IMG/VR virus record: IMGVR_UViG_3300030060_006470
From: an uncultured virus (IMG/VR IMGVR_UViG_3300030060_006470)
Lineage: Duplodnaviria > Heunggongvirae > Uroviricota > Caudoviricetes
Strand: one strand, 5' to 3'
DNA length: 20,000 nucleotides
This document shows, one piece after another, positions 479 to 19,953 of the stretch. The first letter of the stretch is position 1; each line of letters starts with the position of its first letter. A program made the translations under genes and the position numbers. A model generated the notes under the pieces. It was not told the origin of the DNA, did no database searches, and saw only the letters and a program-made list of their open reading frames with translations.

Positions 479-503
479 TATTCTAAACAGAAAAATATAA
501 GAG

Positions 504-710: not shown

Positions 711-714
711 TTAA

Positions 715-766: not shown

Positions 767-784
767 ACTTTAAAATTAATATAA

Positions 785-967: not shown

Positions 968-976
968 TTTTATTGT

Positions 977-1069
977 TTATAACGTTGAGTATAAATGCCG
1001 TTGCGATATACGGCACTAAATTAAAAAGATATGAGTAAAGAAAGCAATGGAATTTATACAGTGTTACCT
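977..1069. other. attC-like recombination site S2
   Basis: TAAC(980)-N5-gtataaatgccgttgc...gcaatggaatttatac-N3-GTTA(1063); 14 of 16 stem positions Watson-Crick. Confidence 0.65.
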
Positions 1070-1237
1070 ACCGTTTATCCTTTGATTGATAATAAACGAT
1101 GGTACGCTGAGAATGGAACAGTTTATAATGAAGCGGATGAAGACTTTAGAATCTTAATGGTTTGCGGAGAAAATAGTGAAATGAACTTACCTAATGATGT
1201 AGCAGAAAAAATAGCTGAATATCTAAATGGTAGGTAA
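1031..1237 (+). CDS. Hypothetical protein (68 aa), cassette-borne
   Basis: ATG lies in the loop of S2; the stop codon is the TAA of the terminal TAAC. Confidence 0.7.
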   Translation: MSKESNGIYTVLPTVYPLIDNKRWYAENGTVYNEADEDFRILMVCGENSEMNLPNDVAEKIAEYLNGR

Positions 1238-1292
1238 CAACTATGTAATGACACCTTTGCAGAGTCCATATAAACTGTAAATCAATTAATTA
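1235..1292 (+). repeat. attI-like array-end site with IHF-consensus box, copy 1
   Basis: 35 of 42 nt identical to the reverse complement of 18304-18345; AATCAA-TTAA-TTA at 1280-1292. Confidence 0.6.
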
Positions 1293-1305
1293 AACTGTTA
1301 TTTAA

Positions 1306-1337
1306 TTTGTTATATTAAATATTATTCCTTATATTAG
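1306..1337 (+). promoter_or_regulatory. Bacteroidota-type promoter, probably leaderless transcript
   Basis: TTTG-N20-TATATTAG-N4-ATG. Confidence 0.7.
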
Positions 1338-1341
1338 TATT

Positions 1342-1530
1342 ATGAAAAGATATTACGAGCAATGGATGGGTGGGAAGATTAAATATACAGTTAATTTCCA
1401 CGATGGTGTGCAAACACATAAGGATGGTTCACCGTTCTATGGTGTAGCCGTATTTAAAAACAAAAGAAAAAAGAATGACTTCGTTAAGAGGTTAGTTAGT
1501 GAGGGTTATACCATAAGACCTAACTATTAA
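1342..1530 (+). CDS. Hypothetical phage protein (62 aa)
   Basis: ORF directly after a promoter. Confidence 0.8.
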   Translation: MKRYYEQWMGGKIKYTVNFHDGVQTHKDGSPFYGVAVFKNKRKKNDFVKRLVSEGYTIRPNY

Positions 1531-1554
1531 TACTGTAATGAGCTACGTATTTAA

Positions 1555-1586
1555 TTTGTTATATTAAATAATATTTACTATATTAG
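1555..1586 (+). promoter_or_regulatory. Bacteroidota-type promoter, probably leaderless transcript
   Basis: TTTG-N20-TATATTAG-N4-ATG; near copy of 1306-1337. Confidence 0.7.
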
Positions 1587-1590
1587 CGTT

Positions 1591-1857
1591 ATGGAATTAT
1601 TTATAGATATTAAAGATAAGGTACACAATTCAAGTGGTATAGAAAAACCTCAAAATTATTATTGGGGTAAAGATGTTACTACTAATGGTATGTATTATCT
1701 TATAAGACTTATTGATGAAGATGAAATTCATGAAGAAATAAGAGAGTTCTTATATGCTAATGATAATCTACCTAATATTAGTCTGGATGAAATACCTTTG
1801 GATACATTTACAACTGAACAATTAGAACGTAGAGATTTTTTTATGAGTATGTTTTAA
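1591..1857 (+). CDS. Hypothetical protein (88 aa)
   Basis: ORF directly after a promoter. Confidence 0.75.
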   Translation: MELFIDIKDKVHNSSGIEKPQNYYWGKDVTTNGMYYLIRLIDEDEIHEEIREFLYANDNLPNISLDEIPLDTFTTEQLERRDFFMSMF

Positions 1858-1878
1858 TTTGTTAATAAAACGTGAATT

Positions 1879-2097
1879 ATGATAAAAATTGGTGAAAAAG
1901 TTAAAATGTCAGATGACCTAAAAGAAGGTTTGGTTAAAAACGGTTGTATAGACCACGTTAAAGAATTTGGGAATTGTGAAGGTATGGTTGAATCATGGGT
2001 TTATCCAAATACAGATATAAAAGAAGTGAATGTTAGGTGGAAACCCTCAAATCTAAGGTACGCATATGATATTGATATGTTGACCAATGTTTTATAA
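1879..2097 (+). CDS. Hypothetical protein (72 aa), possibly SH3/KOW-like and a decayed cassette
   Basis: IKIGEKVKM...EGMV...VNVRW pattern; flanks resemble cassette ends. Confidence 0.7.
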   Translation: MIKIGEKVKMSDDLKEGLVKNGCIDHVKEFGNCEGMVESWVYPNTDIKEVNVRWKPSNLRYAYDIDMLTNVL

Positions 2098-2142
2098 TGC
2101 TACAACTAAACACAGTTATAAATATTATTTCTTATAATATTG

Positions 2143-2213
2143 TAATGAGTTAGGTCATCTCACAAGGTGGTAAATCTCGGATATTACGTGGCGTCTGAGT
2201 GCCTAACCCATTA
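2143..2213 (+). ncRNA. Candidate structured RNA (long hairpin)
   Basis: taatgagttaggtcatctca pairs with tgagtgcctaacccatta; relatively GC-rich, intergenic, upstream of a terminator. Confidence 0.35.
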
Positions 2214-2242
2214 TTAAATAATAGACACATTTGTGTATATTG

Positions 2243-2278
2243 AAAAAGGGAGAGCGGATAAACCACTTTCCCTTTTTT
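2243..2278. terminator. Bidirectional intrinsic terminator
   Basis: aaaaagggagagcgg-ataaa-ccactttccctttttt between convergent units. Confidence 0.65.
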
Positions 2279-2431
2279 AGTTTAAACCAATAAAACTAAT
2301 CTTATCCAATTAATATCATAACTTGTTGTCCAGTCCAGATTATATTATCTAACTTGCTAGACTTATGCGAATGTAATAATAATTTACCACTAACCCAAAT
2401 TATACCACAAAATAATATCTTATTCATCTTT

Positions 2432-2665
2432 TTAAATTATAGGTGTTATTGTTTCAATAGTAACTGTCTTCAAGTCTTCATCACCACTTATACACATACC
2501 ATCAATATGATTACTAACACTACAAGAGTGTTGCTCATTTAGACAGAATATGTTTGTATCTGAAAACATAACTTGTTCTTGTACCCACTCAAAAATATCA
2601 TCAAATGATGCTTTTTCACTAAAGAAAAGTGTTGTGGAATTTCCGTTTATAAATATCTGTTTCAT
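2432..2665 (-). CDS. Hypothetical protein (77 aa)
   Basis: Own minus-strand promoter at 2670-2701. Confidence 0.75.
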   Translation of the reverse strand: MKQIFINGNSTTLFFSEKASFDDIFEWVQEQVMFSDTNIFCLNEQHSCSVSNHIDGMCISGDEDLKTVTIETITPII

Positions 2666-2669
2666 AATG

Positions 2670-2701
2670 CTAATATAAGAATTAATATTCGATTTACCAA
2701 A
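2670..2701 (-). promoter_or_regulatory. Bacteroidota-type promoter, probably leaderless transcript
   Basis: Minus strand TTTG-N20-TATATTAG-catt-ATG. Confidence 0.7.
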
Positions 2702-2721
2702 TATTAAATAAAATAAAAATA

Positions 2722-2795
2722 TATTAAATAATATTAGGAATATCTAAATAAGTTTATTATCTTAGTACTCTAACCAATTAAAACAAATAACAATG
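2722..2795 (+). promoter_or_regulatory. Promoter plus leader block, near-identical to 3139-3212
   Basis: TTAG-N20-TATCTTAG-tacTCTAAC...aaaacaaataacaATG. Confidence 0.7.
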
Positions 2796-3086
2796 AGATT
2801 AATTACAAAAAAATCAGTTGAAGCTTTTAATAACGCTAAAGCATTTAAGAATTCTAATACAGAAATTGAGGTATTTCCAAACGTAACTGTAATGAAGTTA
2901 TTCGGTAACGAAATAGCATATAGATATAACGACCCTAAGAGAACGCTAAGTATAACGAATTGTGGTTGGAAGAGTAATACGACAAAGGAAAGATTAAACG
3001 CTATTAGTGGTGTTAATATACAACAAAAAAAGGGTGTTTGGTATTTGAACGGTAAAGAATGGAACGGTAACTTAATTGATGTTTGA
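2793..3086 (+). CDS. Hypothetical phage protein (97 aa)
   Basis: Promoter-ORF-terminator unit; LFGNEIA and GWKSNTTKERLNA resemble a recurrent phage family. Confidence 0.85.
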   Translation: MRLITKKSVEAFNNAKAFKNSNTEIEVFPNVTVMKLFGNEIAYRYNDPKRTLSITNCGWKSNTTKERLNAISGVNIQQKKGVWYLNGKEWNGNLIDV

Positions 3087-3109
3087 AAATAAGGTTTAAA
3101 GTTAGATTA

Positions 3110-3139
3110 AAAGGGTAGTTTAAAAGCTATCCTTTTTTT
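3110..3139 (+). terminator. Intrinsic terminator of the repeated family
   Basis: aaagggtagt-ttaaaa-gctatccttttttt. Confidence 0.8.
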
Positions 3140-3212
3140 ATTAAATAATATTAGGAATATCCAAATAAGTTTTTTATCTTAGTACTCTAATCATTAAAAC
3201 AAATAACCAATG
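3139..3212 (+). promoter_or_regulatory. Promoter plus leader block, near-identical to 2722-2795
   Basis: TTAG-N20-TATCTTAG-tacTCTAAT. Confidence 0.7.
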
Positions 3213-3467
3213 CAAAACGAAAAACTTACATTCTTGAAGTCTGACGCTATTGATATAGTAACTAAGAATTACGAATACTTCTCTAGTATGATTATGTGTT
3301 CTGTTATGGGTAAAATAAACCTAGATGAAGCAGGTATTAAATTGTCAGAACTACAAGAATATACAAAATTATTAAGTGAACAATTAACACTAATTTATGA
3401 GATTGATAACCCTATAATGGAAATACCTAAACATTTATTTGATAGGGTAAAAGAATTAAAGTTATAA
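3210..3467 (+). CDS. Hypothetical protein (85 aa)
   Basis: Promoter-ORF-terminator unit. Confidence 0.8.
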   Translation: MQNEKLTFLKSDAIDIVTKNYEYFSSMIMCSVMGKINLDEAGIKLSELQEYTKLLSEQLTLIYEIDNPIMEIPKHLFDRVKELKL

Positions 3468-3480
3468 CACCCAACACAAT

Positions 3481-3700
3481 TAAATTAAAGGTAGTCCAAT
3501 CGGCTACCTTTTTTTATGACCAGGAATTAATTATAAGACCATTTTAAAGCCATTTAAGACACTATTATAATTAAATGGATATAGATTACCACTTAATTAA
3601 TAAACCACCTTAAAACCTATTAATTAATTAAATAAAAAAATATTACTTTTTATTTGCATATGTCAAATATTCTTATATATTTTATTATATAGGGAAATTG
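3481..3700 (+). repeat. ~220-bp intergenic repeat U1 (terminator, inverted-repeat module, TTTGCATATGTCAAA...TATAGGG core)
   Basis: Collinear with 4023-4242, 5880-6102 and 6659-6880; terminator at 3487-3515. Confidence 0.85.
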
Positions 3701-3745
3701 ACATTTAAAATTATCTTGACCAGGGAAAAATTTTTAAAAATAAAG

Positions 3746-3790
3746 CTTGTGGGGACAAAATAAAATTACTATATTAGTGGTCTAACTTTT
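3746..3790 (+). promoter_or_regulatory. Bacteroidota-type promoter with TCTAAC start motif
   Basis: CTTG-N20-TATATTAG-tggTCTAACtttt. Confidence 0.65.
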
Positions 3791-3802
3791 AAAGTTTGAA
3801 TT

Positions 3803-4009
3803 ATGAGAGGAATTTATTACAATGAACTTAACGGGAACACTTACTTAGTTCTTAACGTGGAAAACAATGTTGTTCATGTTAATAGTGTAGTGGTTAGCAG
3901 AATAGGTACTATGCTAAAAGTATTGGACGGTGTCAGAGGTATACCTTTAGATGTTTTTGAAAAGTTTAAACATAGTGGAAACTATACTAAGGAAGACATA
4001 AATGATTAG
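3803..4009 (+). CDS. Hypothetical protein (68 aa)
   Basis: Promoter-ORF-terminator unit. Confidence 0.8.
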   Translation: MRGIYYNELNGNTYLVLNVENNVVHVNSVVVSRIGTMLKVLDGVRGIPLDVFEKFKHSGNYTKEDIND

Positions 4010-4022
4010 TCTTCTTTAAACT

Positions 4023-4242
4023 CTAATTAAAGGATAGTTAATAGCTATCCTTTTTTTATGCTCAGTAATTAAATCTAAGGTTATTTTTAAGCCACCTATA
4101 AAACCTTTATAATTAAATGGACATAGATTATAGTATCATAACTGAACTTGCCTTAAAACAGCTTTAAATATTAATTTAAATAAATATTAATTATTATTTG
4201 CATATGTCAAAATTTTTTTTATATTTTATATATAGGGAAATT
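4023..4242 (+). repeat. Intergenic repeat U2
   Basis: Terminator 4029-4057, arms 4076-4091 and 4152-4166, core 4197-4241. Confidence 0.85.
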
Positions 4243-4250
4243 TCAGATAT

Positions 4251-4273
4251 AAAAAAAGGGAGCAACTGCCCCC
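4251..4273 (-). terminator. Intrinsic terminator
   Basis: Minus strand ggggcagttgctccc followed by T7, downstream of ORF 4300-4554. Confidence 0.6.
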
Positions 4274-4299
4274 ATAACCAATAAACCAAATTAATACCT

Positions 4300-4554
4300 T
4301 TACTCCTCATTTAAATCCCCCCATAACATCTTACATAATATGTCTGAATCATTTTCAACATCTTTAATTCTTTGCTTAATCTTTTTTCTTAACTCAAGAG
4401 TTTCCTCATCAGTATCACAACCAAGCCAAGCGTCATCAAGTTCAGACTCGTGAGCATCTTTCAATCCCCATAAATCTTTAATAGTGTCCTCAACTAAAAC
4501 CTTATTGTTGAAATCGAACTTGTCCATGTTTGTTAATATTCTAAATCCATTCAT
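4300..4554 (-). CDS. Hypothetical protein (84 aa)
   Basis: Own promoter TTTG-N19-TAACTTAG-taaTCTAAC at 4611-4572 and a terminator. Confidence 0.8.
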   Translation of the reverse strand: MNGFRILTNMDKFDFNNKVLVEDTIKDLWGLKDAHESELDDAWLGCDTDEETLELRKKIKQRIKDVENDSDILCKMLWGDLNEE

Positions 4555-4657
4555 AATGTTACTGTTTTAAAGTTAGATTACTAAGTTAATAAATTTATTT
4601 CATTCAACAAAATTTAATATACACATTTGTGTATATATGTGTGAGGGGAAAGAAGGA

Positions 4658-4828
4658 CTAAATAAGTCCCTCTTCCTCCAATGCTCTCAATTCAAAACCT
4701 CTAACATATAATCTGTTAGCCTTATCGAATTCTTTCTTAGCTAGAGCCTTTTGCCCCTTTTCATAAAGTTTCCAACCTTTGTCAAGAGCCTTTAATCCTA
4801 ATTTTTCGTACTTGTTGTCCTTAGCCAT
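4658..4828 (-). CDS. 56-aa helical hypothetical protein, not in the ORF track
   Basis: MAKDNKYEKLGLKALDKGWKLYEKGQKALAKKEFDKANRLYVRGFELRALEEEGLI; own promoter TTTG-N20-TATATTTA-catTCTAAC at ~4886-4846. Confidence 0.75.
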   Translation of the reverse strand: MAKDNKYEKLGLKALDKGWKLYEKGQKALAKKEFDKANRLYVRGFELRALEEEGLI

Positions 4829-4939
4829 ATTATTACCGTTTTAAAGTTAGAATGTAAATATAGTAAATTAACATCATACCACCAAATTTATTTTACTGTC
4901 ACTTATTAACATTTAATTGTTAATAAAGAAATCTTCTAA

Positions 4940-4990
4940 TTTATTTTGATATGTCAAATATTCTTCTATATTTTTATTATATAGGGAAAT
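4940..4990 (+). repeat. Core-only copy U3 of the intergenic repeat
   Basis: ttttgatatgtcaaatattcttctatatttttattatatagggaaat. Confidence 0.75.
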
Positions 4991-5209
4991 GTAGTTTTTT
5001 ATTATTTAAAGGTCAAAAAAATAATTAATAAATAAGTAAAAATAAATGTTAAAAAATTAGGAAAATCCAAAAATCCACTGAAGCCCCTTTTTAGCCCTTT
5101 TAAGGCACTTTTACCCTTTTTAGGTATCAGTATATCACTTTTTAGAGAACTTAAAAAACCTCTGTAACTTACTGTAAATCAGTAACTTATAAATTAGTTT
5201 AAAAATAAA

Positions 5210-5259
5210 TTTGGATTGTATGCTACTATTCACTATATTAGCAGTCTAACTTTTAAAAC
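5210..5259 (+). promoter_or_regulatory. Bacteroidota-type promoter with TCTAAC start motif
   Basis: TTTG-N20-TATATTAG-cagTCTAACttttaaaac; IHF-like AATCAG-TAAC-TTA just upstream at 5177-5189. Confidence 0.7.
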
Positions 5260-5267
5260 TTATAAAA

Positions 5268-5864
5268 ATGGCAAATTTTATTATTACAACTACTGACGAA
5301 TTGGCAACTTTTATTACTAACGAGGGAATTAAGGCTACTAAATTTAGTGCTATTTACTTTACAGAAGAAAGTAAAAGTAGAACAAAAAATAAGGTTAAAA
5401 CCGTTAACAAACTTGTTAAAACTGAAATGAGGTTGGCAGAAAGTTACCAAAACAAAATTGAAAACAGAATTAACGAGGATTACAAGCCCGATAGCCCTAG
5501 AGGTTTAGAGTATGTTAGCCCTTTCTTTTTTAGAGGTATTAAGGCAGGCGATTTGAGGTTGAACGCTTATTCTAGTGGTTACATACCAACAACTAAATAT
5601 TACCATAGTGGTACTGTTAAAACTATTGAGGAATTAAAAGGTTTAGATTTATTAAGCCCTTCATTTTTTACTAAAAAAGAAACTGTTGGGAAAGGTAAAG
5701 TTAGCGAAGAAGATGATTTCTTTGTTACTAGACTAAGGTTAAACAGAGTTATTATGTTTACTTACAAAAAGAAAACTTTTGTTAATGTTGAGGGGTTGAA
5801 AAATTACCTTGAAAATGTTGAGGAGGTTAACGAGAGTATTAAGCCTTACGTTGAAATGATTTAA
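5268..5864 (+). CDS. Hypothetical phage protein (198 aa)
   Basis: Promoter-ORF-terminator unit. Confidence 0.9.
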   Translation: MANFIITTTDELATFITNEGIKATKFSAIYFTEESKSRTKNKVKTVNKLVKTEMRLAESYQNKIENRINEDYKPDSPRGLEYVSPFFFRGIKAGDLRLNAYSSGYIPTTKYYHSGTVKTIEELKGLDLLSPSFFTKKETVGKGKVSEEDDFFVTRLRLNRVIMFTYKKKTFVNVEGLKNYLENVEEVNESIKPYVEMI

Positions 5865-5879
5865 TAGGGTTAATAAGAT

Positions 5880-6102
5880 AAATTAAAGGGTAGTTTAAAA
5901 GCTACCCTTTTTTTATACCCTAACATTAAATCTAAGGCTATTTTTAAGCTATCTAATGAACTATAATATTTATATGGATATAGATTATATTATCATAATA
6001 AAAAATCGCTTAAAACAGCCTTAAATGATATTTTAATTAAATATTAAATAAAGTTTGCATATGTCAAATATTCTATTATATTTTAATATATAGGGGAAAT
6101 TT
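5880..6102 (+). repeat. Intergenic repeat U4
   Basis: Terminator 5885-5914, arms 5933-5949 and 6008-6023, core 6054-6100. Confidence 0.85.
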
Positions 6103-6122
6103 GAAATTAAATTAAATATTGT

Positions 6123-6162
6123 TTTGTATAACTCAAGTATTTTTTTATATTTGTGGTCTAAC
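6123..6162 (+). promoter_or_regulatory. Consensus Bacteroidota promoter
   Basis: TTTG-N19-TATATTTG-tggTCTAAC. Confidence 0.8.
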
Positions 6163-6191
6163 CAATATTTTTTAACTTAAATTTTTTTATT

Positions 6192-6641
6192 ATGGACAAC
6201 AGAAACATAGAAGTAAAATTAGCAAATTCTTTTCATTATGAAATTGAAAACTTGTCTTTAGATGCTCAAAAATTAATTAGAACTCAAGAAAGTGGTAAGT
6301 ACGATACTTTTTCTTTTGTTAATGCACCCGCAAAGGTTAATTGGTGTGGCACTTGTAACGGTACAGGTAAAAGAAGTATTTATGATGTGCAAGGTTATGA
6401 TATTGACAGAATGATGAATACAGGAGATTACGAGGCAGATATGGAATTTAGAGAAGATTATTTTGGTGGTAAAACTGATACTTGTTGTGATGTTTGTGAA
6501 GGTACAAAAATTCAAAATGAAGTAGATTACGATTCATTGAATGAATTACAAAATGAAATTTTTGAAGCTAATTGGAAATGTTATAGGGAAGAAGCGCAAG
6601 ACAGAGCAGAAGAAGAAGCAGAGAGAAGAGCAGGTTGTTAA
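6192..6641 (+). CDS. DnaJ-type CxxCxGxG zinc-finger protein (149 aa)
   Basis: CGTCNGTG and CDVCEGTK motifs; no J-domain HPD motif. Confidence 0.75.
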   Translation: MDNRNIEVKLANSFHYEIENLSLDAQKLIRTQESGKYDTFSFVNAPAKVNWCGTCNGTGKRSIYDVQGYDIDRMMNTGDYEADMEFREDYFGGKTDTCCDVCEGTKIQNEVDYDSLNELQNEIFEANWKCYREEAQDRAEEEAERRAGC

Positions 6642-6658
6642 TTTGCTCTTATAGTTTA

Positions 6659-6880
6659 TAAATTTAAAGGTAGTCTAATAGGCTACCTTTTTTTATGTCT
6701 AATAATTAAATCTAAGACTATTTTTAAGCTATCTAATAGAATATAATACTTAAATGGATATAGATTACCACTTAATTAATAAAACACTCTTAAAACAGTC
6801 TTAAATGATATTTTAAATAAATATTAAATAAAGTTTGCATATGTCAAATATTCTGTTATATTTTATTATATAGGTAAAAT
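6659..6880 (+). repeat. Intergenic repeat U5
   Basis: Terminator 6666-6694, arms 6713-6728 and 6789-6803, core 6834-6880; an extra core variant follows at 6899-6945. Confidence 0.85.
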
Positions 6881-6960
6881 AAAAAAAATCACTTTTTATT
6901 TGGTAGTGTTAAATATTTTTCTATATTCTATTATATAGGGCAAATTAAATTAAATATTGT

Positions 6961-7004
6961 TTTGTATAAGTCAATTATTTTTTTATCTTTGTAGTCTAAC
7001 TTTT
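6961..7004 (+). promoter_or_regulatory. Consensus Bacteroidota promoter
   Basis: TTTG-N19-TATCTTTG-tagTCTAACtttt. Confidence 0.8.
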
Positions 7005-7016
7005 AATTTTATTTTT

Positions 7017-7361
7017 ATGAAAACTGTTTATTCTGAAATTTTTGAAAACGAAACTGAAATGGTAATTGAGTTAAAAACTGCACTTTATAATAGATTAGGA
7101 GATTCAAGTCTTTTGACTGATGGAATTTATTATTCTATTGCTGAAGCTATTGGAGAATGGGAACGTGATTGTTTAAAGGATTTTAAAGAGGTTTCCAATG
7201 AGAAGTATATAGGTTGGGAAGTTAGGGTTTCGGGAAATTACGATAACATTGAGAGAGTTGTAAAACCGTATTTACCAAGTTGGATTATGGACGCTAAAGT
7301 TAAAAATTACAAGCACGCTAAAAACCTATTTAATAAATATTTAAGGTTTGCTGAGATTTGA
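7017..7361 (+). CDS. Hypothetical protein (114 aa; start moved from 6957)
   Basis: The ATG at 7017 lies downstream of the promoter, while the TTG at 6957 precedes it. Confidence 0.8.
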   Translation: MKTVYSEIFENETEMVIELKTALYNRLGDSSLLTDGIYYSIAEAIGEWERDCLKDFKEVSNEKYIGWEVRVSGNYDNIERVVKPYLPSWIMDAKVKNYKHAKNLFNKYLRFAEI

Positions 7362-7377
7362 TAATTTTATAGCTTAT

Positions 7378-7490
7378 AAATTTAAAGGTAGTCTAATAGG
7401 CTACCTTTTTTTATGTCCAAAAAATAAATATTAAATATTATTTGCATATGTCAAATATTCTGTTATATTTTATTATATAGCAGAAATTGA
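7378..7490 (+). repeat. Intergenic repeat U6 (terminator and core, middle module missing)
   Basis: Terminator 7384-7412 identical to that of U5; core 7441-7488. Confidence 0.8.
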
Positions 7491-7577
7491 AATAAATAAT
7501 ATGTAGAATAGTTGCATCGTATTATAAGCCATTCTAAGAGCCTTTTATTTCTTAGATAGGTAAATATACCACTATGA

Positions 7578-7804: not shown

Positions 7805-8227
7805 ATGAAGTCACTTATAAAGAAGTTATTGAGGGAAGAATTGGTAAATAAATTAATCAGGTTAGAGATTGACGAGGTTCATAAACCTGGTGAATATACT
7901 CACGAAAATGTAAAGTTAGAAGACTTATATGTTTTAGAAAAAAATATGAATGAAGCTTGGAACATTAAGGGTGGTTCTAAAACTAAAGACCCCTTAGAGG
8001 TATTTCAAATGTTAGATAATAGTAAATTTTTACTTGACGGTCATCATAGGGTTTGTGATTATATAATTAAAAGTGGTATTATAGATAAAGAAGAAATTCT
8101 TAAATTAGAGATATATTCTAATATATTACAAACACCTATTAAAAATTCGATAGAAGCTTTAGGTGCAAAACTTTTTAATGGTTACATACCCTTTATTGAA
8201 TGGTTAAAAAAAATTAACATATATTAA
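7805..8227 (+). CDS. ParB/Srx-like N-terminal-domain protein with conserved leader
   Basis: DPLEV...LLDGHHRV motif; N-terminus MKSLIKKLLREEL. Confidence 0.7.
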   Translation: MKSLIKKLLREELVNKLIRLEIDEVHKPGEYTHENVKLEDLYVLEKNMNEAWNIKGGSKTKDPLEVFQMLDNSKFLLDGHHRVCDYIIKSGIIDKEEILKLEIYSNILQTPIKNSIEALGAKLFNGYIPFIEWLKKINIY

Positions 8228-8273: not shown

Positions 8274-9080
8274 TTAGGGGGTAGTAATATTTTCAATACT
8301 AGTAACTAATACTTTCTTAACGCTTATTTCGGTTTCTTTATCTGTGATATTTCCTGTTGTAATATCTTTAGGGTTAAATTTAAAAGTAATTAATACTTCT
8401 TCATCAGCTAATTCTGAATAGTAATCTAAAACATATTGTTTATTTAGTGATAGATATATACCGTTACCTGGCATGGTAAGGACTTTACCTACTTTAATGT
8501 CTAGATTTAGTCTGGCGTTTGCGCCAGATGATATTTTACCATTTATAAGTGGCATAACCTTGTAACCCGTTAAAGTTGTATTAGTTTGGTTTGTTGATTC
8601 GTCTAATGACATTAATATTCTGTCTTGTGATATATCAGCAACCTTATAAAACCCATATTTGTTTGCTAATATTTTGGCTAACTTTGGGTTTATAACATCT
8701 ACCTCCATTTTAAATTCATCACCATACATGTCTTTTCTAAAATTAAACTCGTCAATGGCAGCTTGAATTAGTTTGTGTGATAACCCCATATTTTGATACC
8801 CATAATCTATTGCTATATCAAATGAAAAGTTTTCATTATCATTGTTAATCCAAATAGCGCCAATAACTCTATTATTATTTGTATCTATTAGTAGTCCGTT
8901 AAGTTCTTTATCTCTAAGTATGGTAACCCCTCCGTCTTTAGCTATTTTTTCAGCTTCATCTGCAGCTTCATATTCATCAATATCAAACTCAGATAAATCA
9001 ACATCGTCATGATAAGATACTAATTCATATTTTTCATTTAGCAGTCCTTCTCTAAGCAATTTTTTGATTAATTGTTTCAT
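8274..9080 (-). CDS. GNAT acetyltransferase plus possible ART-like C-terminal domain, with leader
   Basis: VIGAIW...FDIAIDYGYQNMGLSHKLI matches GNAT motif A; C-terminal GYKVM...GIYLS...ETEISV; leader MKQLIKKLLREGLLNE. Confidence 0.7.
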   Translation of the reverse strand: MKQLIKKLLREGLLNEKYELVSYHDDVDLSEFDIDEYEAADEAEKIAKDGGVTILRDKELNGLLIDTNNNRVIGAIWINNDNENFSFDIAIDYGYQNMGLSHKLIQAAIDEFNFRKDMYGDEFKMEVDVINPKLAKILANKYGFYKVADISQDRILMSLDESTNQTNTTLTGYKVMPLINGKISSGANARLNLDIKVGKVLTMPGNGIYLSLNKQYVLDYYSELADEEVLITFKFNPKDITTGNITDKETEISVKKVLVTSIENITTP

Positions 9081-9093
9081 GTATTAATTGTTT

Positions 9094-9663
9094 TTATTTC
9101 CACAATGATTTATCAGTAGGTGTTATATTGTAAACATCATTACCAAATATAACGTTGGTTACTTTAAATAGGCTTTTATCAAACAAACAAACATCATTAT
9201 ATGGTTGATTCATAATTTTCATATCAGTGAACCAAGAATCGTAATTTGTATTTTGTTTAAGGTATGGTGCTAGGTCTGCAAAATGATTCAAATCAAGTTC
9301 ATAAATCATTTCTTCCATCTCATCCCATGTTGTTTTAAATGTATTTTTTGCGTATGATTCAGCTTCAACTAAAAAGAGTAGTCCTCCACCGCTCTTATCA
9401 GATTTAAGACCAGCAAATTCCCTACCTGTAGATATATCATCTGTAAACCAATAGAAACCATCTTGTACCCTAGATTGGATATATTTTTGGAAAAAGTTAT
9501 TAATCTCAACCTTATCTGATGATAAGTTGTTCTTACTTAAAAAATCTTCCAATTTCCATATACCTGGTATAACGCCCCCATGATATAGTTTTGAATTAAG
9601 CCCTTCTTTGGTTATTTCACCTAATAATGATTCTCTTAGCAATTTTTTGATTAAGTGTTTCAT
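9094..9663 (-). CDS. Divergent ADP-ribosyltransferase-like protein with leader
   Basis: LYHGG...FYWFTDD...EFA...YDS...VCLFD; leader MKHLIKKLLRESLLGE. Confidence 0.6.
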   Translation of the reverse strand: MKHLIKKLLRESLLGEITKEGLNSKLYHGGVIPGIWKLEDFLSKNNLSSDKVEINNFFQKYIQSRVQDGFYWFTDDISTGREFAGLKSDKSGGGLLFLVEAESYAKNTFKTTWDEMEEMIYELDLNHFADLAPYLKQNTNYDSWFTDMKIMNQPYNDVCLFDKSLFKVTNVIFGNDVYNITPTDKSLWK

Positions 9664-9680
9664 CTATATATAAATATAAG

Positions 9681-10550
9681 TTAAAGATATGGGTTTAATG
9701 GTAATTCCCTATCATCTGGGTTATATTTGATTAATTGTTTATTTATTATATTTAGTTTATTTGCTTTATATACACATACGATAGGATTACCCCAATTAGT
9801 TGTATAGACTCCATCAATACCTAACTTAAGGAAAAACATTGTTGCCTTTCTAAGGCTATTAAAATGTGCTGCAATATAAAAATATAATGCATTAAAATTA
9901 GTTTCTAAATCTTCAAGACGTAATTCATTATAATAATCGTCCACATTTGGTGCAATGTCACTCAAATATATTTCTTCTTTATAATCAATCGTATTAACGG
10001 TTTTTAAAAAGTTAAAAACTTCTTCTTCACCTTTTAAATTTTTAGCCACCTCTTTATTTGTTTTTTCATCCCAAATAACCCACGTATTTGGTTTATAACC
10101 GTCATCTATAGCCCATTGTGGTAGTTCATCACCAAACCTATCCCAAGTATATGATATGTTATTTTCACCAATATGTAGACTATCAAAATCAAAAGTATCT
10201 AAAAGGTTAGATTCAAAAAATTTATAAAAATTAGGTATTTTATTAACTTTTTCTTTAATATAATCTGGTATGTCTCCGTGAAAATTTATTAAGTTCATAT
10301 TGGGGGGCATTTCTAAAGTATAAAGGTAACCATCCTTACTATCCTTTAATGCATACCCTTTAGCTTGGTCAATTTCTGGGGTTATATATACACCGTAACC
10401 TTCTGTAGCCCACCCAGGCTCATCTGGTGAATCACCCCATTTTAATTTAGGATATGGACTTCCATGATAATATCTATCATTTTTTGGGTTAAATTCATTT
10501 TTCTCATCCAACAACCCTTCTCTAAGCAATTTTTTTATTAAGTGTTTCAT
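9681..10550 (-). CDS. ADP-ribosyltransferase-like (ART-PolyVal-type) protein with leader
   Basis: YYHGS...GYGVYIT...AKGYA...GYLY...GIDGV; leader MKHLIKKLLREGLLDE. Confidence 0.7.
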   Translation of the reverse strand: MKHLIKKLLREGLLDEKNEFNPKNDRYYHGSPYPKLKWGDSPDEPGWATEGYGVYITPEIDQAKGYALKDSKDGYLYTLEMPPNMNLINFHGDIPDYIKEKVNKIPNFYKFFESNLLDTFDFDSLHIGENNISYTWDRFGDELPQWAIDDGYKPNTWVIWDEKTNKEVAKNLKGEEEVFNFLKTVNTIDYKEEIYLSDIAPNVDDYYNELRLEDLETNFNALYFYIAAHFNSLRKATMFFLKLGIDGVYTTNWGNPIVCVYKANKLNIINKQLIKYNPDDRELPLNPYL

Positions 10551-10581
10551 CTGTATATAAGTTAAGGTTCATAACCTAGAT

Positions 10582-11913
10582 TTAAGTTTTTTCTATTCTT
10601 TTTTTATGGGCTGACATAATATCTTGGAGGATATGGTCATTATTTAAGCGTTTAATAAAATCTTTATCATTAATCATCAAATTGTACATCTTTTTTGGGT
10701 TAGGATGATATTTTAACAATTCATCTATAGCCCCTTTGTCCTTATATAATTTTTCTCTAAAATCTTTGTTTTTAAATATAGTATCCACAATTTCTTCTGG
10801 ATTTTTAAAGCTGTTAGAAAAGTAAGCCAATGCTGTGTTCATTTTAGATATAACACTATCATAGCTTAATAATAATTTAACTAAGTTATTTTTGTCATTA
10901 CCCTTCATATCTGGGACCTCTATAAAATATGCCATATCTTCACTATCAATTATACCATTTATTTCATCTTCTGTTAAGTTGTTGATAAATTTATCAAACT
11001 CATCACCAAATTGCCTTAATATTTGTGGGTTTTCTGAGGTTTTTAAAATATTTAACATTTCAGCCTTGTCAATTAAACTTGGTCTGTTCTTTAACAGGTA
11101 TTTAAAGTTTTCTTCAGAAAAATCACCTACACTAAAGTTTCCAATTGAATCATATGATTCGCTCGTTCTTAAATCGTGAACCATATTACTATCTACCAGT
11201 AACCAAAGGATATATTTATGATATTTTTCATTTGGTTTTTCGTTACTTTTACCTCTTATTTGTATAACATATTTTTCTGTTGGGTGCCAATCTATTGTAA
11301 CATGCTCCCTGTTGTTTTTACGTAAGTGTAATAAATACATGCCATCATCTTGGGCTTCCCCACAATGACCCATAGATTCTTTAGACTTTTCACAATAATT
11401 ACTTTCAGTTAAAGCCCAATAATAACCATCATTGAATTTGTGAATTACTTTAACATTATCATCAATACCTTTAATTTCACCACCTACTTCAAGTGACTGG
11501 TGCCATTTGTCTGACATTTTAATAGCTTCATCCCATGTATATTGTTTTAGGTTAACTGAAGGTGTGCTTGGAGCTTCGCTCCAGTCTGTAATATACTTAT
11601 ACGATGGTAAAAGAGAGTCTAGTACTTCCTTAAAACTTAATTTATTTATATTAATATTTGGTTTATTTGTTGTTGTGAAAAATTTGATTATTTTTTCAAG
11701 GTCACGTCTTTTTTCAATTAAAAAACGTTTAGGGTCCTCTGGGTAATTAACCTTAGCTTGATTAGCTATCCATATAGAGTATTTATCAGATATATCGTGC
11801 GAAATATCAGCAGCCTCTTGGTCTAGGCCAATTTTATTTATAATAACCTTCCTATTATCCTTTTCGGTTAACAGCAGTCCTTCTCTTAGCAATTTTTTAA
11901 TTAAATGTTTCAT
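10582..11913 (-). CDS. PcfJ-like domain protein with leader
   Basis: MGHCG...LLHLRK...HVTID...IQIRGKSN; paralog of 15424-16910. Confidence 0.7.
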   Translation of the reverse strand: MKHLIKKLLREGLLLTEKDNRKVIINKIGLDQEAADISHDISDKYSIWIANQAKVNYPEDPKRFLIEKRRDLEKIIKFFTTTNKPNININKLSFKEVLDSLLPSYKYITDWSEAPSTPSVNLKQYTWDEAIKMSDKWHQSLEVGGEIKGIDDNVKVIHKFNDGYYWALTESNYCEKSKESMGHCGEAQDDGMYLLHLRKNNREHVTIDWHPTEKYVIQIRGKSNEKPNEKYHKYILWLLVDSNMVHDLRTSESYDSIGNFSVGDFSEENFKYLLKNRPSLIDKAEMLNILKTSENPQILRQFGDEFDKFINNLTEDEINGIIDSEDMAYFIEVPDMKGNDKNNLVKLLLSYDSVISKMNTALAYFSNSFKNPEEIVDTIFKNKDFREKLYKDKGAIDELLKYHPNPKKMYNLMINDKDFIKRLNNDHILQDIMSAHKKRIEKT

Positions 11914-11924
11914 TATTTGTTTTT

Positions 11925-13682
11925 TTAGATTCCTTCCGCACCGAATATTTTCATCACTTTTTCAGGGTGCTTTGAAAAGCTTATTAGTCTTCGTTTACTT
12001 TTTTCGTCTACATTATCAATAAATTCTTTACCTATAACCCCTAATATGTTCATTATCTTTTCTGGTTCTTCGGATTTAGTCAGTAGAAAATAAAACCTAT
12101 CTTGATTTTCTTCACCTCCTCCACCTAAAGAAGTTACAAATTCTTTACCTACATCCCCTAGTAAGTTATACAACCTTTCAGGTATTTTTGATTTTATTAG
12201 TAGAGCACGTATAATGCTATAAGAATCTGAGTCTTTTAGATTAGAGACATATTCTTTAAACTTATCACCCAACATATTTGCCACCTTTTCAGGTTCTTTT
12301 GAGAGGTTTAATAATTCATTTACCGTCATCATGCCACTAATATCCAAAATTCTACCATCTACTCTTGTCATCTTTAAATCTAAATTAGATATAAAATCTT
12401 TATGGTTTAATAACATATTAATCACCTTTTCGGGTTCTTCTGAGGATGTTACTAACGTGGTCACACCTAAATCGTTTGAATTACTTATATACGCATTCCT
12501 TTCTTTTTCTGGTAATAAAGATAACTCACCATATGTCAATCCTTCATACTTTTGTAGTTTAATTCTAATAACCCTTAATTGTTGTTTTGTAGATAATAAA
12601 TTAGTTTGTTCTTTACCCTTTGCTAAAAAATAACCACTTTCAATTAATGAATCCAACACTTCTGGTCTAAGCGATTTAATATTTTCATTACTTATTTTTA
12701 TATCTTCGGCATATAAATCTCTAATAAAATCTTTAGCTTCTACTTGACTACCATTAATAATTAAACCCTTTATTTCCTGGTCAATATAACCCTGTAGATT
12801 ATCATCATCATACCCCTTTGCCCATTTTATTATGTCTTCGTATCTTTTCTCATCCTCACTAATTTCTTGATATGGAAAATATTCTTCCAAACCGTAAAGG
12901 TTTGGTATTTCATTTTCTATATATTCCCATGATTCGTTATCGTCTTGGTTACCTCCAGCTCTGTCACCTTCATTACTTCTATCAGCAATAGCGTAGCCAT
13001 CTGGGTAATGCATGATAACTAATTTATGCTCGTCACCTTCTACGTTTTTTTGTAATACAAAATAAGGGGTAGCTCTATATTTAACTCTATATGTATTATA
13101 GAAATTTTCTTCAGCCTCTGAAATACACCATGATTCGCCTTGCCCGTATCTAACACACTTCGCTTTTGTGTTTGTGTCAAGTATAATAATGTCATCGTCT
13201 TCATAAACAACATCATCATCTTTAGGGTTATATATATCATTATCTTGCTTAATCGAAGTATCTTTAATCCATTTATTATTATTCACCAAATCAACCAAAC
13301 TCTTTTCTATTTTATCATTCATAGTCTTATTAGTTGGAAAAGGTCTGGCCTCATCGCCAAGTGATTTAATGTTTTTAACATAAGCATCAAGAAACTTCTT
13401 GGCTAAATCTTTATTATCAATAAATGCTGTAGTTTTAATCATTTTATTGATAGTGCTGTCGTACCAAGATTTAAATAAAGTGTCTAACTGGTCTTTAGAT
13501 TTAATTTGTTGTATATTACCAAAACTATTCTTAAATAAACCAGCAATGGCTAATTTATTTAATGTATCATCTGAAGAATCACCAATCTTTTTGGTAACGC
13601 CATTAATTATTTTATCGTTATATAAACTATTTTCGGTTAATAACAGTCCTTCTCTAAGCAATTTTTTGATTAAGTGTTTCAT
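11925..13682 (-). CDS. 585-aa protein with WCI motif (PcfJ-related?), C-terminal helical repeats and leader
   Basis: CVRYGQGESWCIS...FYNTY...PYFVL; five S-x-x-P-E-K/R repeats; leader MKHLIKKLLREGLLLTE. Confidence 0.65.
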   Translation of the reverse strand: MKHLIKKLLREGLLLTENSLYNDKIINGVTKKIGDSSDDTLNKLAIAGLFKNSFGNIQQIKSKDQLDTLFKSWYDSTINKMIKTTAFIDNKDLAKKFLDAYVKNIKSLGDEARPFPTNKTMNDKIEKSLVDLVNNNKWIKDTSIKQDNDIYNPKDDDVVYEDDDIIILDTNTKAKCVRYGQGESWCISEAEENFYNTYRVKYRATPYFVLQKNVEGDEHKLVIMHYPDGYAIADRSNEGDRAGGNQDDNESWEYIENEIPNLYGLEEYFPYQEISEDEKRYEDIIKWAKGYDDDNLQGYIDQEIKGLIINGSQVEAKDFIRDLYAEDIKISNENIKSLRPEVLDSLIESGYFLAKGKEQTNLLSTKQQLRVIRIKLQKYEGLTYGELSLLPEKERNAYISNSNDLGVTTLVTSSEEPEKVINMLLNHKDFISNLDLKMTRVDGRILDISGMMTVNELLNLSKEPEKVANMLGDKFKEYVSNLKDSDSYSIIRALLIKSKIPERLYNLLGDVGKEFVTSLGGGGEENQDRFYFLLTKSEEPEKIMNILGVIGKEFIDNVDEKSKRRLISFSKHPEKVMKIFGAEGI

Positions 13683-15423: not shown

Positions 15424-16910
15424 ATGGAAGTAAGCATAAAACAAATTATAAGGGAAGCCTTGCAATCTGAACAAGAAAGAATAGACAAAAAAATACTTGC
15501 TAAGCAAAAGATTGTTGATAAGCTTGGTGTTTCCGATGAAATTTCTGACTGGGCTTTTGAGTTAAATCCTAAACTAGCTTTTTGGGTTGTAAAAACACTT
15601 AAAGAAAAGCATAAGCAAGGTCTGGCCGTAACGATAAAGAAAGTTTAGATGAATACTACCAAACACTAACCAATGGTTATCAAGATTTCTTTGATTTGTT
15701 AAAAGAAACAAATAGGCCAGCTATTCAGCCAAAACAAAATAGTTACGATTCGGCTATAGATTTGGTTAACAAATACAGTCATATTAGACAATGGGTAGAA
15801 AACCCAGATTCAGACTACGTTGATTTAAAACGTTTTACATGGGACGAAGCACTTGCAACTGCGGAAAGGTGGCATGAGGGTCTTGTTGTAACTAAAGTTT
15901 ATGATATAAATAAAAAATCAGAAATAATTCCAGGTAGTAAAGCTATGGGTAATGGTTTTTATTGGGCGTTAACTAAAGATAGCGTTAGTAGGGATTCTGC
16001 AAATGCTATGGGTCACTGTGGTACGGCAAATAAGCGTGATATGTGGCTTTTACATTTGCGTAAAGAAGAAGAGGAGTTTATTACAGCTGACTGGCACCCA
16101 ACCGATAACTTCGTGATTCAATTTAAGGGTAAAGGTAATAAGAGACCTAAAAAAGATTATCATAAATATATAGAGTGGCTTTTAAAAAATTGGGACATTA
16201 AAAAATTAAGAACTACTGAGGGATATAAACCAGAGACTAATTTTCAATTAGGTGATTTAGAACCAGAAAAAGCTATTGAGATATACTATGGTAAACCAGG
16301 AATAGTGGATGATAAAATTTTGATTGATTCTGCCCCAGTTGAAAATAAAGGTAAGCTTGTAACTAATTTATTAAAGAATGAGTCGTTTTTATTAAGTTCG
16401 ATACCAAATAAATTTTTTGATTATTTAAATATGGTTAAGGGTGCGGATGTATTTTCATTGTTAGCTGTCATATTAAAAAGCCCAAAGTTCTTTAAAGACA
16501 TGAGCATTTATGGGGGATACTTAAAGGAAACGCTTACTAGAATGCTTGATGCGGTACCAAAGAAAGATAAGTTAATTGATGCCATTATAAATGTTGATGG
16601 TATGTTAGATATTATCGGAAAAGAAGAAGTTGATTTACTTAGGCTTAACTATAGTGACCAAGATAAGTTAAATGAGATATTTGATAATTATGAAAATGGA
16701 ATTATGGCTTATGTTGATGGTAAATTAGAAATGGTTGAGGATGATTGGGATGAGGATGAATATTATGATGATGAAGAGCCTGAAGATGAAGAACTTGAGT
16801 CAGAAACCGAAGAGGATGAAAAGGAGGGTGAAGAACAGTTGCCAGAATCACATAAGCGTAAATTAAGAATAATAAAGGAGCTTAGAAATAGATTTGGCAA
16901 TCTACTATAA
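15424..16910 (+). pseudogene. Frameshifted PcfJ-like gene (74-aa and 404-aa ORFs are one gene)
   Basis: Both parts align in order to the 443-aa paralog; the second frame is open from 15615, before the first frame stops at 15646-15648. Confidence 0.75.
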
Positions 16911-17400: not shown

Positions 17401-17778
17401 TTATTCGGTTAAGTTTTTATATTCTTCTGTTGACATTAGGTTATTTAATTCTGATGTGTCTGACATTTTTATTTTAACAATCCATCCATCACCGTAGGGG
17501 TCGTTATTGATTAGTTCTGGGTCATCTTCCAGGTTTTCATTTACCTCGAATATTGTACCTGTGACTGGTTGAAATAGGTCTGAAACGGTTTTAACTGCTT
17601 CTATTGTTCCGAATACTTCATCAGCGTCAAGTTCTTCGTCTAGGGTTTCCACTTCAACGTATACTATATCACCTAGTGCTGATTGTGCGAAGTCTGTCAC
17701 TCCAACTGTTGCTATATCGCCATTAACTTGAACCCATTCGTGTTCATTTGTGTAGTATAGATTTTCTGGTGTTTTCAT
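17401..17778 (-). CDS. gcvH: Glycine cleavage system H protein (lipoyl carrier)
   Basis: YTNEHEW, VGVTDFAQSALGDIVYVE, IEAVKTVSD (lipoyl lysine), INNDPYGDGW. Confidence 0.97.
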   Translation of the reverse strand: MKTPENLYYTNEHEWVQVNGDIATVGVTDFAQSALGDIVYVEVETLDEELDADEVFGTIEAVKTVSDLFQPVTGTIFEVNENLEDDPELINNDPYGDGWIVKIKMSDTSELNNLMSTEEYKNLTE

Positions 17779-18085: not shown

Positions 18086-18310
18086 TTAGAATGGTAAATC
18101 TATTTGTTTAGGTTTAACTAGATGTTTTCTTAGTTTAGTTAATGAATAGAATTTACCTCTAATATTATATCCTATACAAGCATTCTTTAGTACTTGTTTT
18201 AGTTCTTTATTTCTTTTAGAATTTATACACTTTTTACATTTAGTAAAGACATACTCTGGAGCAAAATCTAATTCATAAACATAAGTGTAAGTTACTGATA
18301 CTGAGTTCAT
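18086..18310 (-). CDS. Basic hypothetical protein (74 aa)
   Basis: Starts inside the attI-like site and reads away from the array. Confidence 0.75.
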   Translation of the reverse strand: MNSVSVTYTYVYELDFAPEYVFTKCKKCINSKRNKELKQVLKNACIGYNIRGKFYSLTKLRKHLVKPKQIDLPF

Positions 18311-18345
18311 ATTGGTTCTGTAAAGGTGTCGTTACATGGTTGTTA
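18288..18345 (-). repeat. attI-like array-end site with IHF-consensus box, copy 2
   Basis: Inverted copy of 1235-1292; minus strand TATCAG-TAAC-TTA at the same 45-nt offset. Confidence 0.6.
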
Positions 18346-18378
18346 TAAGTAATGCTACGTTTCTACTTCGTATTGAGT

Positions 18379-18765
18379 TTATTTTTGTAATTTTACAAAA
18401 TCATTAAAAAACAAAATAACTGTTTCAATTATATTTTCATCAATTAAATCATTATATGAAAACTCTTTATATTCAATATGTTCTCGATTTAATTTTATTA
18501 AACTTAAATCAGTTATTTCACCAGAATAAACATTTAATTTTTTATCATAAAAATCATAGTTATTTATAAAATTAATGTTTTTTGGGATAAAACCAATTTC
18601 TTCTAATGATTCACGCTTTAAGCAATCTAAGTTTGATTCGTTATTATTTCTTAAACCACCGATTAATCCAAATTTGTTTTTAAAATATTTATTATATTTA
18701 GGGTTTCTTTTAAATAAAACCACTTTATTATTATATAATATCAATAATAGCGATATATTTTTCAT
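18379..18765 (-). CDS. Nudix hydrolase
   Basis: Complete Nudix box G-LRNNN-E-SNLDCLK-RESLEEIGF. Confidence 0.9.
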   Translation of the reverse strand: MKNISLLLILYNNKVVLFKRNPKYNKYFKNKFGLIGGLRNNNESNLDCLKRESLEEIGFIPKNINFINNYDFYDKKLNVYSGEITDLSLIKLNREHIEYKEFSYNDLIDENIIETVILFFNDFVKLQK

Positions 18766-19412
18766 TTCTTTATTTTATATGTATTAATTACATTAATTTT
18801 ATCACCACTGAATAAAACATAATTAGTACCTTTTGCGTGTGTTTTATCACCAACTTTTAAAAACTGACCAATAGGGTAAAAAATACCATCAAATCCAATT
18901 TCTGATAGTTTTTCGGAAGTTAATTTATCAGAACCGAAAATTATGGATAAATTTTCATATAGAAATTTACCATTTGGGTAATAATCAAGTGCTTCTTCAA
19001 TAGGTTTTTTTATTATTTCTACCTTATTTTTTACTAACATTTTTTTTATAGGTAATTCATTGATATTTATTTTTTTTAAATTATTAAGTAATTTACTTTT
19101 AGTATCAATATCAAGTTTACCGTACCAATCAAAAAGAGTTAAACTGTTAGTTTTAACAACATATACAATACCATCATCACCACCTAACATGTTGGCATAA
19201 AATTTTGCCACTCCTTCATTATCTGTAAAATATAAACCATAACCAAAGGATTGATTACCTTCACCACCACCAATATTTTTCGTAGAAAATTTAATAAACT
19301 CATGACTTGAACCATGATATAATACTAAATTGTTATTAATCTCTTCGTTGAGTAATCGTTGTTCATTCAAATGTTCACGTACAGTAGTTGCTATAAATTT
19401 TCTTAGTTCCAT
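18762..19412 (-). CDS. ADP-ribosyltransferase-like (ART-PolyVal-type) protein with variant leader
   Basis: LYHGS...GEGNQSFGYGLYFTD...AKFYA...GFDGI...NYVLF; leader MELRKFIATTVREHLNE; TATTTATA at 19432-19439. Confidence 0.75.
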   Translation of the reverse strand: MELRKFIATTVREHLNEQRLLNEEINNNLVLYHGSSHEFIKFSTKNIGGGEGNQSFGYGLYFTDNEGVAKFYANMLGGDDGIVYVVKTNSLTLFDWYGKLDIDTKSKLLNNLKKININELPIKKMLVKNKVEIIKKPIEEALDYYPNGKFLYENLSIIFGSDKLTSEKLSEIGFDGIFYPIGQFLKVGDKTHAKGTNYVLFSGDKINVINTYKIKK

Positions 19413-19486
19413 AATATTAAATTGTTTATTATATAAATATTAAAATTCTACCCTAAAATACTTTTTGTTTTTTCATAATAAACGTT

Positions 19487-19551
19487 TTATAACAAGGTTT
19501 ATACTCCATATTCCGCTACGCTCCATACGTAGCATACACTAATCGTTATAT
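19487..19551. other. attC-like site S3
   Basis: TAACAA(19490)...CGTTA(19544), inner stem gtttatact/agcatacac, spacers 3 and 5 nt. Confidence 0.6.
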
Positions 19552-19590
19552 TTAATGCGGTGGTAGCGACTTTCTTTATTGCAATAGTCC

Positions 19591-19662
19591 TCATGTTAAC
19601 CAAGACCTAATTTCAATTGCGTGGCACTCGCTCAATGTTGCAATCATTGTTTTACCTATCAT
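19591..19662 (-). CDS. Possible 23-aa cassette peptide
   Basis: MIGKTMIATLSECHAIEIRSWLT in the S3-S4 cassette; may be non-coding. Confidence 0.2.
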   Translation of the reverse strand: MIGKTMIATLSECHAIEIRSWLT

Positions 19663-19687
19663 ACCAACAAGTTTTTACCGCACTAAA

Positions 19688-19742
19688 ATATAACAATATA
19701 TATAAGCCATAGAAAAAACGGCTCATATAATAACCGTTATAA
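19688..19742. other. attC-like site S4
   Basis: TAACAA(19691)...CGTTA(19735), stem tatataagcca/cggctcatata. Confidence 0.65.
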
Positions 19743-19880
19743 AACATTATCACGTAAATAATCTTTTGCTAATTTCCATGCGTGTGGAGTAATATAACAA
19801 CTAAACCCTTTAATACATACACCATTTTTCCAAATAGATGCTCTAAACTTTTCATATTTTATTTCTATTTTATCTTCCAT
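19737..19880 (-). CDS. 47-aa cassette-borne protein, not in the ORF track
   Basis: MEDKIEIKYEKFRASIWKNGVCIKGFSCYITPHAWKLAKDYLRDNVL; fills the S4-S5 interval and stops inside the site core. Confidence 0.7.
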   Translation of the reverse strand: MEDKIEIKYEKFRASIWKNGVCIKGFSCYITPHAWKLAKDYLRDNVL

Positions 19881-19892
19881 TTTTAAAACGTT

Positions 19893-19953
19893 TTATAACA
19901 ATGTATATAATTAACTCCATTTCATTCCGCAAATCATATACGGAACGTTATAA
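19893..19953. other. attC-like site S5
   Basis: TAACAA(19896)...CGTTA(19946), stem gtatataatt/aatcatatac, spacers 3 and 5 nt. Confidence 0.65.

Follow-up and report, generated by a model that had tools for sequence, protein, structure and literature searches.

A candidate attI-like target site closing hairpin-bounded cassette arrays in Bacteroidota-type phages

What kind of site closes the two cassette arrays that face each other, 17 kb apart and in inverted orientation, in the genome of an uncultured tailed virus? The window analysed here (20,000 nucleotides of IMG/VR record IMGVR_UViG_3300030060_006470) is apparently part of a large AT-rich phage from marine metagenomes, to judge from its numerous small promoter-led genes and recurring N-terminal leaders; its host, judged from its relatives, is probably a member of the Bacteroidota. 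The left terminal attI-like site (1235-1292, + strand) is of a gene-less form and consists of a TAAC core (1235-1238) followed by an IHF-consensus box, WATCAR-N4-TTR (1280-1292). The right terminal attI-like site (18288-18345, - strand) has its core at 18345-18342 and its box at 18300-18288 and overlaps the start of a 74-aa gene. The match reported by the earlier note between 1235-1276 (+) and 18345-18304 (-), 35 of 42 positions, was reproduced. No inverted pair in the window is longer, and the best inverted 42-mers of six simulated windows with the same dinucleotide make-up reach 29-32 positions. The similarity starts at TAAC, as had been claimed, the 30 nt preceding the two cores being identical at just 10 of 30 positions, and in both copies the box begins 45 nt from the T of TAAC (1280 on the + strand, 18300 on the - strand). 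The reported absence of a closing palindrome also holds: a fold scan for AAC...GTT hairpins gave none starting at either core, and at neither does an attC-type closing GTT pair with the opening AAC. A weak second half-site is visible in the left copy (T at 1246, A at 1253), and in all site classes described below offset 11 is T and offset 18 is mostly A. In the right copy the ATG of the 74-aa gene lies at offset 35, with the box within codons 4-8. The box alone is common in the window (12 matches to WATCAR-N4-TTR versus 5.2 +/- 2.4 expected), so only its fixed position is informative. Rfam has no match anywhere in the window.

Each terminal site closes an array of TAAC...GTTA hairpins and cassettes with complementary ends, and in both arrays the cassette genes are oriented toward the terminal site. 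The left array, on the + strand, follows an anchor (442-720) made up of a repeated element that is presumably a promoter (442-491) and a 68-aa gene (504-710), which stops ahead of the first core; no cassette start is seen in the anchor. Next come an attC-like hairpin site read from the sequence (718-763, TAAC...GTTA), the body of which is also found in other arrays, a cassette with a 60-aa ORF (760-983, ORF 785-967), a second hairpin site (980-1066) and the last cassette (1063-1238), whose 68-aa ORF (1031-1237) begins within the hairpin and whose ends are complementary over 10 nt. The right array, on the - strand, contains a hairpin site located by the fold scan (19896-19950), a short cassette whose ends read as complementary over 10 nt (19736-19899), a hairpin site (19691-19739), a 150-nt cassette without an ORF of at least 50 aa (19545-19694), a hairpin site read from the sequence that the fold scans did not call (19490-19548), and the last cassette (18342-19493), which carries a 216-aa ART-PolyVal-like gene and a 128-aa NUDIX gene and has only 7 complementary nt at its ends. 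The arms of the hairpin recombination sites between cassettes are asymmetric and in this differ from canonical attC arms. The sense strand gives the better fold in 284 of 349 hairpin sites, a set that had been selected on the sense strand. In every site class the cassette ends are complementary over 9-10 nt (GTTA plus 6) and never over 11-12, a cap that suggests a defined 6-bp stretch beside the core. One cassette (354 nt, 86%) is common to right-type and left-type arrays (L210/L218 versus L179), and the two types would thus use one recombinase pool.

The earlier note took the terminal site for the primary insertion site of the cassette system, a claim that homologs without adjacent cassettes, or a match reflecting no more than a decayed start of the 74-aa gene, would undo. 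A degenerate site pattern recovered 52 metagenome loci, which sort into 23 gene-less left-type loci (21 full, one at a contig end and one split), 8 right-type loci, 4 whose 74-aa gene lies farther off, and 17 chance matches, so that 35 of the 52 are true homologs; the chance matches served as controls. Exact site patterns found nothing in viral contigs, and a search of GenBank phages with the terminal site and one hairpin gave no convincing relative; phage P12002L, treated below, came to light through a publication. Among the homologs the sequence is conserved after TAAC and varies with the cassette before it, and near-identical copies become unrelated exactly at TAAC. Distinct closing flanks are present in 18 of the 21 gene-less copies and in all seven exact right-type copies, and 19 full-length copies of the gene-less form, one of them from the window, show tight conservation while the cassettes turn over. 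At an orthologous left locus (L213) the anchors and the cassette with the 60-aa ORF are shared, with a different cassette in the position of the window's last one, and two further loci (L019 and L032) differ by whole units of hairpin, GTTA, gene and TAAC. Contigs from three runs (those with small word shares were set aside) stop or diverge at the cores.

In a more formal comparison, the 12 nt ending in the core were matched against the start of the upstream cassette, with complementarity of at least 8 nt taken as a match; duplicates, loci with less than 600 nt upstream, three loci for which no core fell within range, and 12 of 80 recombinase loci with no start called were left out. A matching upstream cassette end was found for 17 of 18 gene-less, 32 of 34 74-aa-type and 43 of 52 recombinase-type sites, counts that are slightly inflated because cores in viral loci were picked by best complementarity, and that are not independent because the sequences are related. 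Among the controls, matches were seen for none of 13 chance matches and for 5-16% of swapped flanks. The single gene-less exception among the 18 (L196, 0 to +1170 from the core) retains the core half of the site, has no upstream cassette end, and has its box split off by about 1 kb; it is the only such homolog. Homologs therefore nearly always adjoin a cassette end and differ exactly up to TAAC, in support of the insertion-site claim, and a gene-less form that recurs in 23 contigs and is so conserved is not a private decayed gene start.

Neither the ORFs nor a profile search revealed a recombinase gene within the 20-kb window. A candidate came from 50 records picked by the hairpin pattern alone (50 of 80 loci with flanks), five of which contain PF00589; four of these genes begin just past the last core of the array. 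All four adjacent recombinases score 133-155 on TIGR02249 (cut-off 265), are matched in two stretches and lack the IntI-specific insertion, and in three of the four the XerA/XerC/XerD models outscore TIGR02249. Their viral relatives have a core about 35-60 nt before the start codon. The top matches in bacterial genomes are mostly from Bacteroidota, and none of the 14 bacterial relatives inspected, out of 80, shows the site by eye. Records selected through the 74-aa gene contain a tyrosine recombinase in 1 of 19 and 1 of 5 cases (four of the five being 74-aa loci), with open frames of 414 and 433 aa, respectively; the 414-aa frame encodes a long phage-type integrase at a distance from the array. 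The largest array encountered belongs to a 170-kb phage record (IMGVR_UViG_3300043411_001575; L043/L064/L070, ~76-116 kb), where hairpin sites extend across ~40 kb and end at an Xer-like recombinase.

Relatives of the adjacent recombinases also occur in the cultured phages Freya, Leef and Ingeline, and the Freya isolates offer a comparison between close relatives at the equivalent site. Freya 6 is longer than Freya 5 by 472 bp, and Freya 10 exceeds Freya 9 by 307 bp; each difference is one whole cassette, located exactly at the AAC that precedes the recombinase gene. At this AAC Freya 9 carries ~2.9 kb, and Freya 1 is without 1.7 kb ending at the same AAC, a less secure case in which the junction spans the start of the record. 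These differences represent gain or loss, the direction of which cannot be read from the comparison, and they add to the support for an insertion site. Cassettes in the Freya records (L400-L408) often have CAAC/GTTG cores instead of TAAC/GTTA. In the main text of the isolation paper the integrase is read as a sign of lysogeny, and cassette, integron and insertion are not mentioned there (PMC8776804).

A second cultured phage, P12002L of Polaribacter, has two arrays closed by one site, the copies being identical for 69 nt with the box at 44; one copy is gene-less, and the other precedes a small gene weakly similar to the 74-aa family (E 2e-4; profile probability 12%). Qi et al. 2023 (PMC9892861) cloned the gene-less copy, from the CALIN of this phage, as 'attC2', called it a divergent attC and tested it with the class 1 integrase IntI1; the portions of their paper available to us mention neither an attI nor a native recombinase nor an IHF box in connection with P12002L. 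IntI1 recombined the bottom strand of attC2 at G|TT and the top strand not at all, and attC1 of P12002L was the one site of six that was not confirmed (PMC9892861). By our comparison attC1 is a true hairpin of the present cassette-system family, and the published attC2 can be re-read as its terminal site. Since IntI1 also uses non-canonical sites (10.1101/2022.09.11.507474), the attC2 result is weak as support. No description of this site or system as such was found in the literature searched, which covered few subscription journals.

We put at roughly 85% the probability that an integron-like cassette system of Bacteroidota-type phages uses both copies in the window as its fixed target site. 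Sequence comparison shows the boundary at the core, the unit, the recombinase link and the gain or loss at the site. An Xer-like tyrosine recombinase without the IntI insertion would join the terminal site and a cassette hairpin at the AAC core, probably cutting at TAA|C, with the double-stranded terminal site and the folded single-stranded hairpin as the likely substrates. Some phages encode the enzyme beside the site; the phage of the window would receive it in trans. The unit gained or lost is hairpin, GTTA, gene and TAAC, and the cassette that changes is the one adjoining the site. A host IHF/HU-family protein may bind the box and bend the DNA, helping synapsis or controlling the following gene.

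The site resembles the attI of integrons. In both, a fixed site with an AAC/GTT core lies at one end of a hairpin-bounded cassette array, cassettes are gained or lost at that core with the adjacent cassette turning over, and a recombinase gene may lie beside the site and point away from the array. The differences concern the enzyme, which here falls below the TIGR02249 cut-off, is matched in two stretches and has no IntI signature, and the cassette, in which the hairpin lies upstream of the gene and the genes run toward the site, whereas an integron cassette has the gene before attC and is transcribed away from attI. Cassette ends are complementary over about 10 nt here and over 7 nt in integrons; moreover an IHF-type box lies at a fixed distance from the core, and the site often stands with the NUMOD4-like gene described below, or alone. 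With no IntI signature and a reversed cassette layout, the site works like attI but is not a member of the integrons, and since the cassette genes point toward it, it should be unable to carry their promoter as attI/Pc does.

The identity of the box is a separate matter. WATCAR-N4-TTR is the IHF consensus of E. coli. Perfect forward boxes are confined to offset 45; 15 of 20 gene-less sites have one, as do 20 of 42 74-aa-type sites (11 of 23 after clustering at 85%; four loci left out), where shuffling gives fewer than one. With a perfect box the start codon is found at offset 29, 32, 35 or 50, and some cases with one mismatch have it at 57-62; since the box offset stays fixed while the start codon moves, the box tracks the core. 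Serine within the box is coded by TCA in 16 of 18 genes, compared with 23 of 66 other serines. A box is present in 20 of 62 recombinase-type sites, among them 12 with a forward box at 30 and five with a reverse box at 27, against an expectation of about one after shuffling. The offset differs by class (45 versus 30 or 27), and the box is found in none of 284 internal hairpins. The consensus is under constraint at the DNA level, not universally so: it is missing from one clade of 74-aa genes with full arrays and from 42 of 62 recombinase-type sites, Freya has no perfect box, and four full-length gene-less copies carry AACCAA, a mismatch in the box.

A putative binding site for an IHF/HU-family protein is, in our judgement, a somewhat better than even assignment for the box. 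For the role in recombination that had been attributed to IHF, the positional and codon evidence is favourable and the clade without a box is not. IHF/HU-assisted tyrosine recombination at lambda attP or in CTnDOT likewise involves a box at a fixed distance from the core, but the site described here spans ~60 bp, its partner is a hairpin and its box is a putative binding site. In CTnDOT integration the factor is BHFa, an IHF/HU-family protein of Bacteroidota (PMC6606824).

The alternative that survives best leaves the site as a target and makes the box a purely regulatory or coding feature of the following gene, with no part in recombination. It is a credible reading, though we hold it to be the less probable one: IHF weakly activates the promoters of class 1 integrons (PMC8876359), in gene-linked sites the box always lies near the start codon, and full arrays exist without it, but the distance is kept to the core and not to the start codon, the box persists in the gene-less copies counted above and in a locus whose gene breaks off after ~13 codons (L215), and the sole empty site found (a single case) is the one split from its box. 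Elsewhere in the window, a near-palindromic box at 5165-5189 (TAACTTACTG-TAAAT-CAGTAACTTA) contains WATCAR-N4-TTR upstream of a 198-aa gene, with no TAAC core 44-45 nt ahead of it.

The 74-aa gene at the right site (18086-18310, - strand) sits where complete systems have their recombinase gene. Its product has 60 close relatives and belongs to a family of 244 clusters at 50% identity, mostly stand-alone, and among the best 150 relatives a length of 72-80 aa prevails. The structure model (pLDDT 87) has as its top fold match the N-terminal NUMOD4 domain of the homing endonuclease I-HmuI (PDB 1u3e; Z 5.6, rmsd 2.6 over 57 residues; next match Z 2.3), which, at a Z under 8, is suggestive of a NUMOD4-type DNA-binding fold. 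Foldseek returned nothing significant for the model (E 2.2), Pfam, PHROGs and NCBIfam offered no usable name for the family, with no match to Pfam NUMOD4, and GenBank phage searches gave no convincing relative. Unlike I-HmuI, the 74-aa protein has no HNH nuclease domain and belongs to a mostly stand-alone family. The domain also lies inside longer proteins (P0175 and P0200; L012 1384-1920), the first two of which start with what we take, by eye, to be a GIY-YIG/T5orf172-like nuclease region. A single 74-aa query found no viral locus; family alignments found 32 and 21 viral loci, partly overlapping, nearly all with a core shortly upstream. For the neighbouring 163-aa gene a single viral relative came up (L411), and neither the site nor a 74-aa gene is present in 20 kb there. 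Since gene-less sites keep turning over their cassettes, the 74-aa gene is not needed in cis.

That the terminal site is a leftover, either the left arm of a broken hairpin or a chance AAC of the first landing, and the left copy what remains of a 74-aa gene start, we regard as improbable. Some terminal sites do look like hairpin arms at offsets 10-18, the P12002L copy was called an attC by Qi et al., and in two loci (L202 and L218) the promoter-like element found after the left site of the window lies downstream of the site and gene, so that the gene-less form may have arisen by deletion of the gene; descent from the gene-linked form by deletion may also be reflected in L215. A leftover would, however, have to account for a site geometry found before two unrelated genes and also before none, for a core 20-60 nt upstream in all 21 divergent 74-aa loci, for the conservation of the gene-less copies despite cassette turnover, and for variation among the Freya isolates that is anchored at the terminal site. 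Whatever its origin, the gene-less form is, as its sequence conservation indicates, a conserved site in its own right. A reading of these elements as MITEs was rejected; the passages of PMC11602168 available to us do not describe them.

The suggestion that the two copies could invert the intervening 17 kb found no support and is likewise improbable. The copies are inverted, have the core in common and close array types that share a cassette, but the orthologous locus retains the window's left arrangement, no joint between the two cores is present among 15 of 52 joints listed from four runs (contigs, which drop rare forms, not reads), and the P12002L pair is direct, so that inversion is not a conserved purpose.

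If the fixed-target reading is correct, the missing platform site of a widespread Bacteroidota-type phage cassette system would be identified, and existing cultured isolates (Freya on Polaribacter) would show its activity. Cultured phages with the same site class make the model testable. Questions opened to experiment are the way in which hairpin cassettes are processed by a tyrosine recombinase lacking the IntI insertion, the need for a host bending protein, and the means by which accessory genes, methylases for instance, are renewed in lytic phages. More tentatively, and with considerable doubt, the site may be the platform of a separate, phage-based integron-like lineage, in which an Xer-like recombinase with no IntI insertion would recombine hairpin cassettes into a site bent by host IHF/HU, phages without a recombinase would keep several such sites and stock them in trans, and the NUMOD4-like protein would act as a site-binding accessory or directionality factor. 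Such a lineage, if real, would be a living relic of the transition that led from Xer recombinases to integron integrases, or else a living parallel to it.

Other features of the window were noted along the way. Five adjacent, unrelated genes (8274-13682, - strand) share an N-terminal leader, MK(H/Q)LIKKLLRE, together with its DNA, and two more genes (7805-8227 and 15424-15648, both + strand) have looser versions; the leader is possibly a shared expression or packaging signal. A glycine cleavage H protein is encoded at 17401-17778 (- strand; Pfam E 3e-47). Finally, the region 440-7500 is densely filled with repeated promoter-like and terminator-like modules around single small genes, and three relatives (L198, L200 and L217) shuffle and invert these module blocks.
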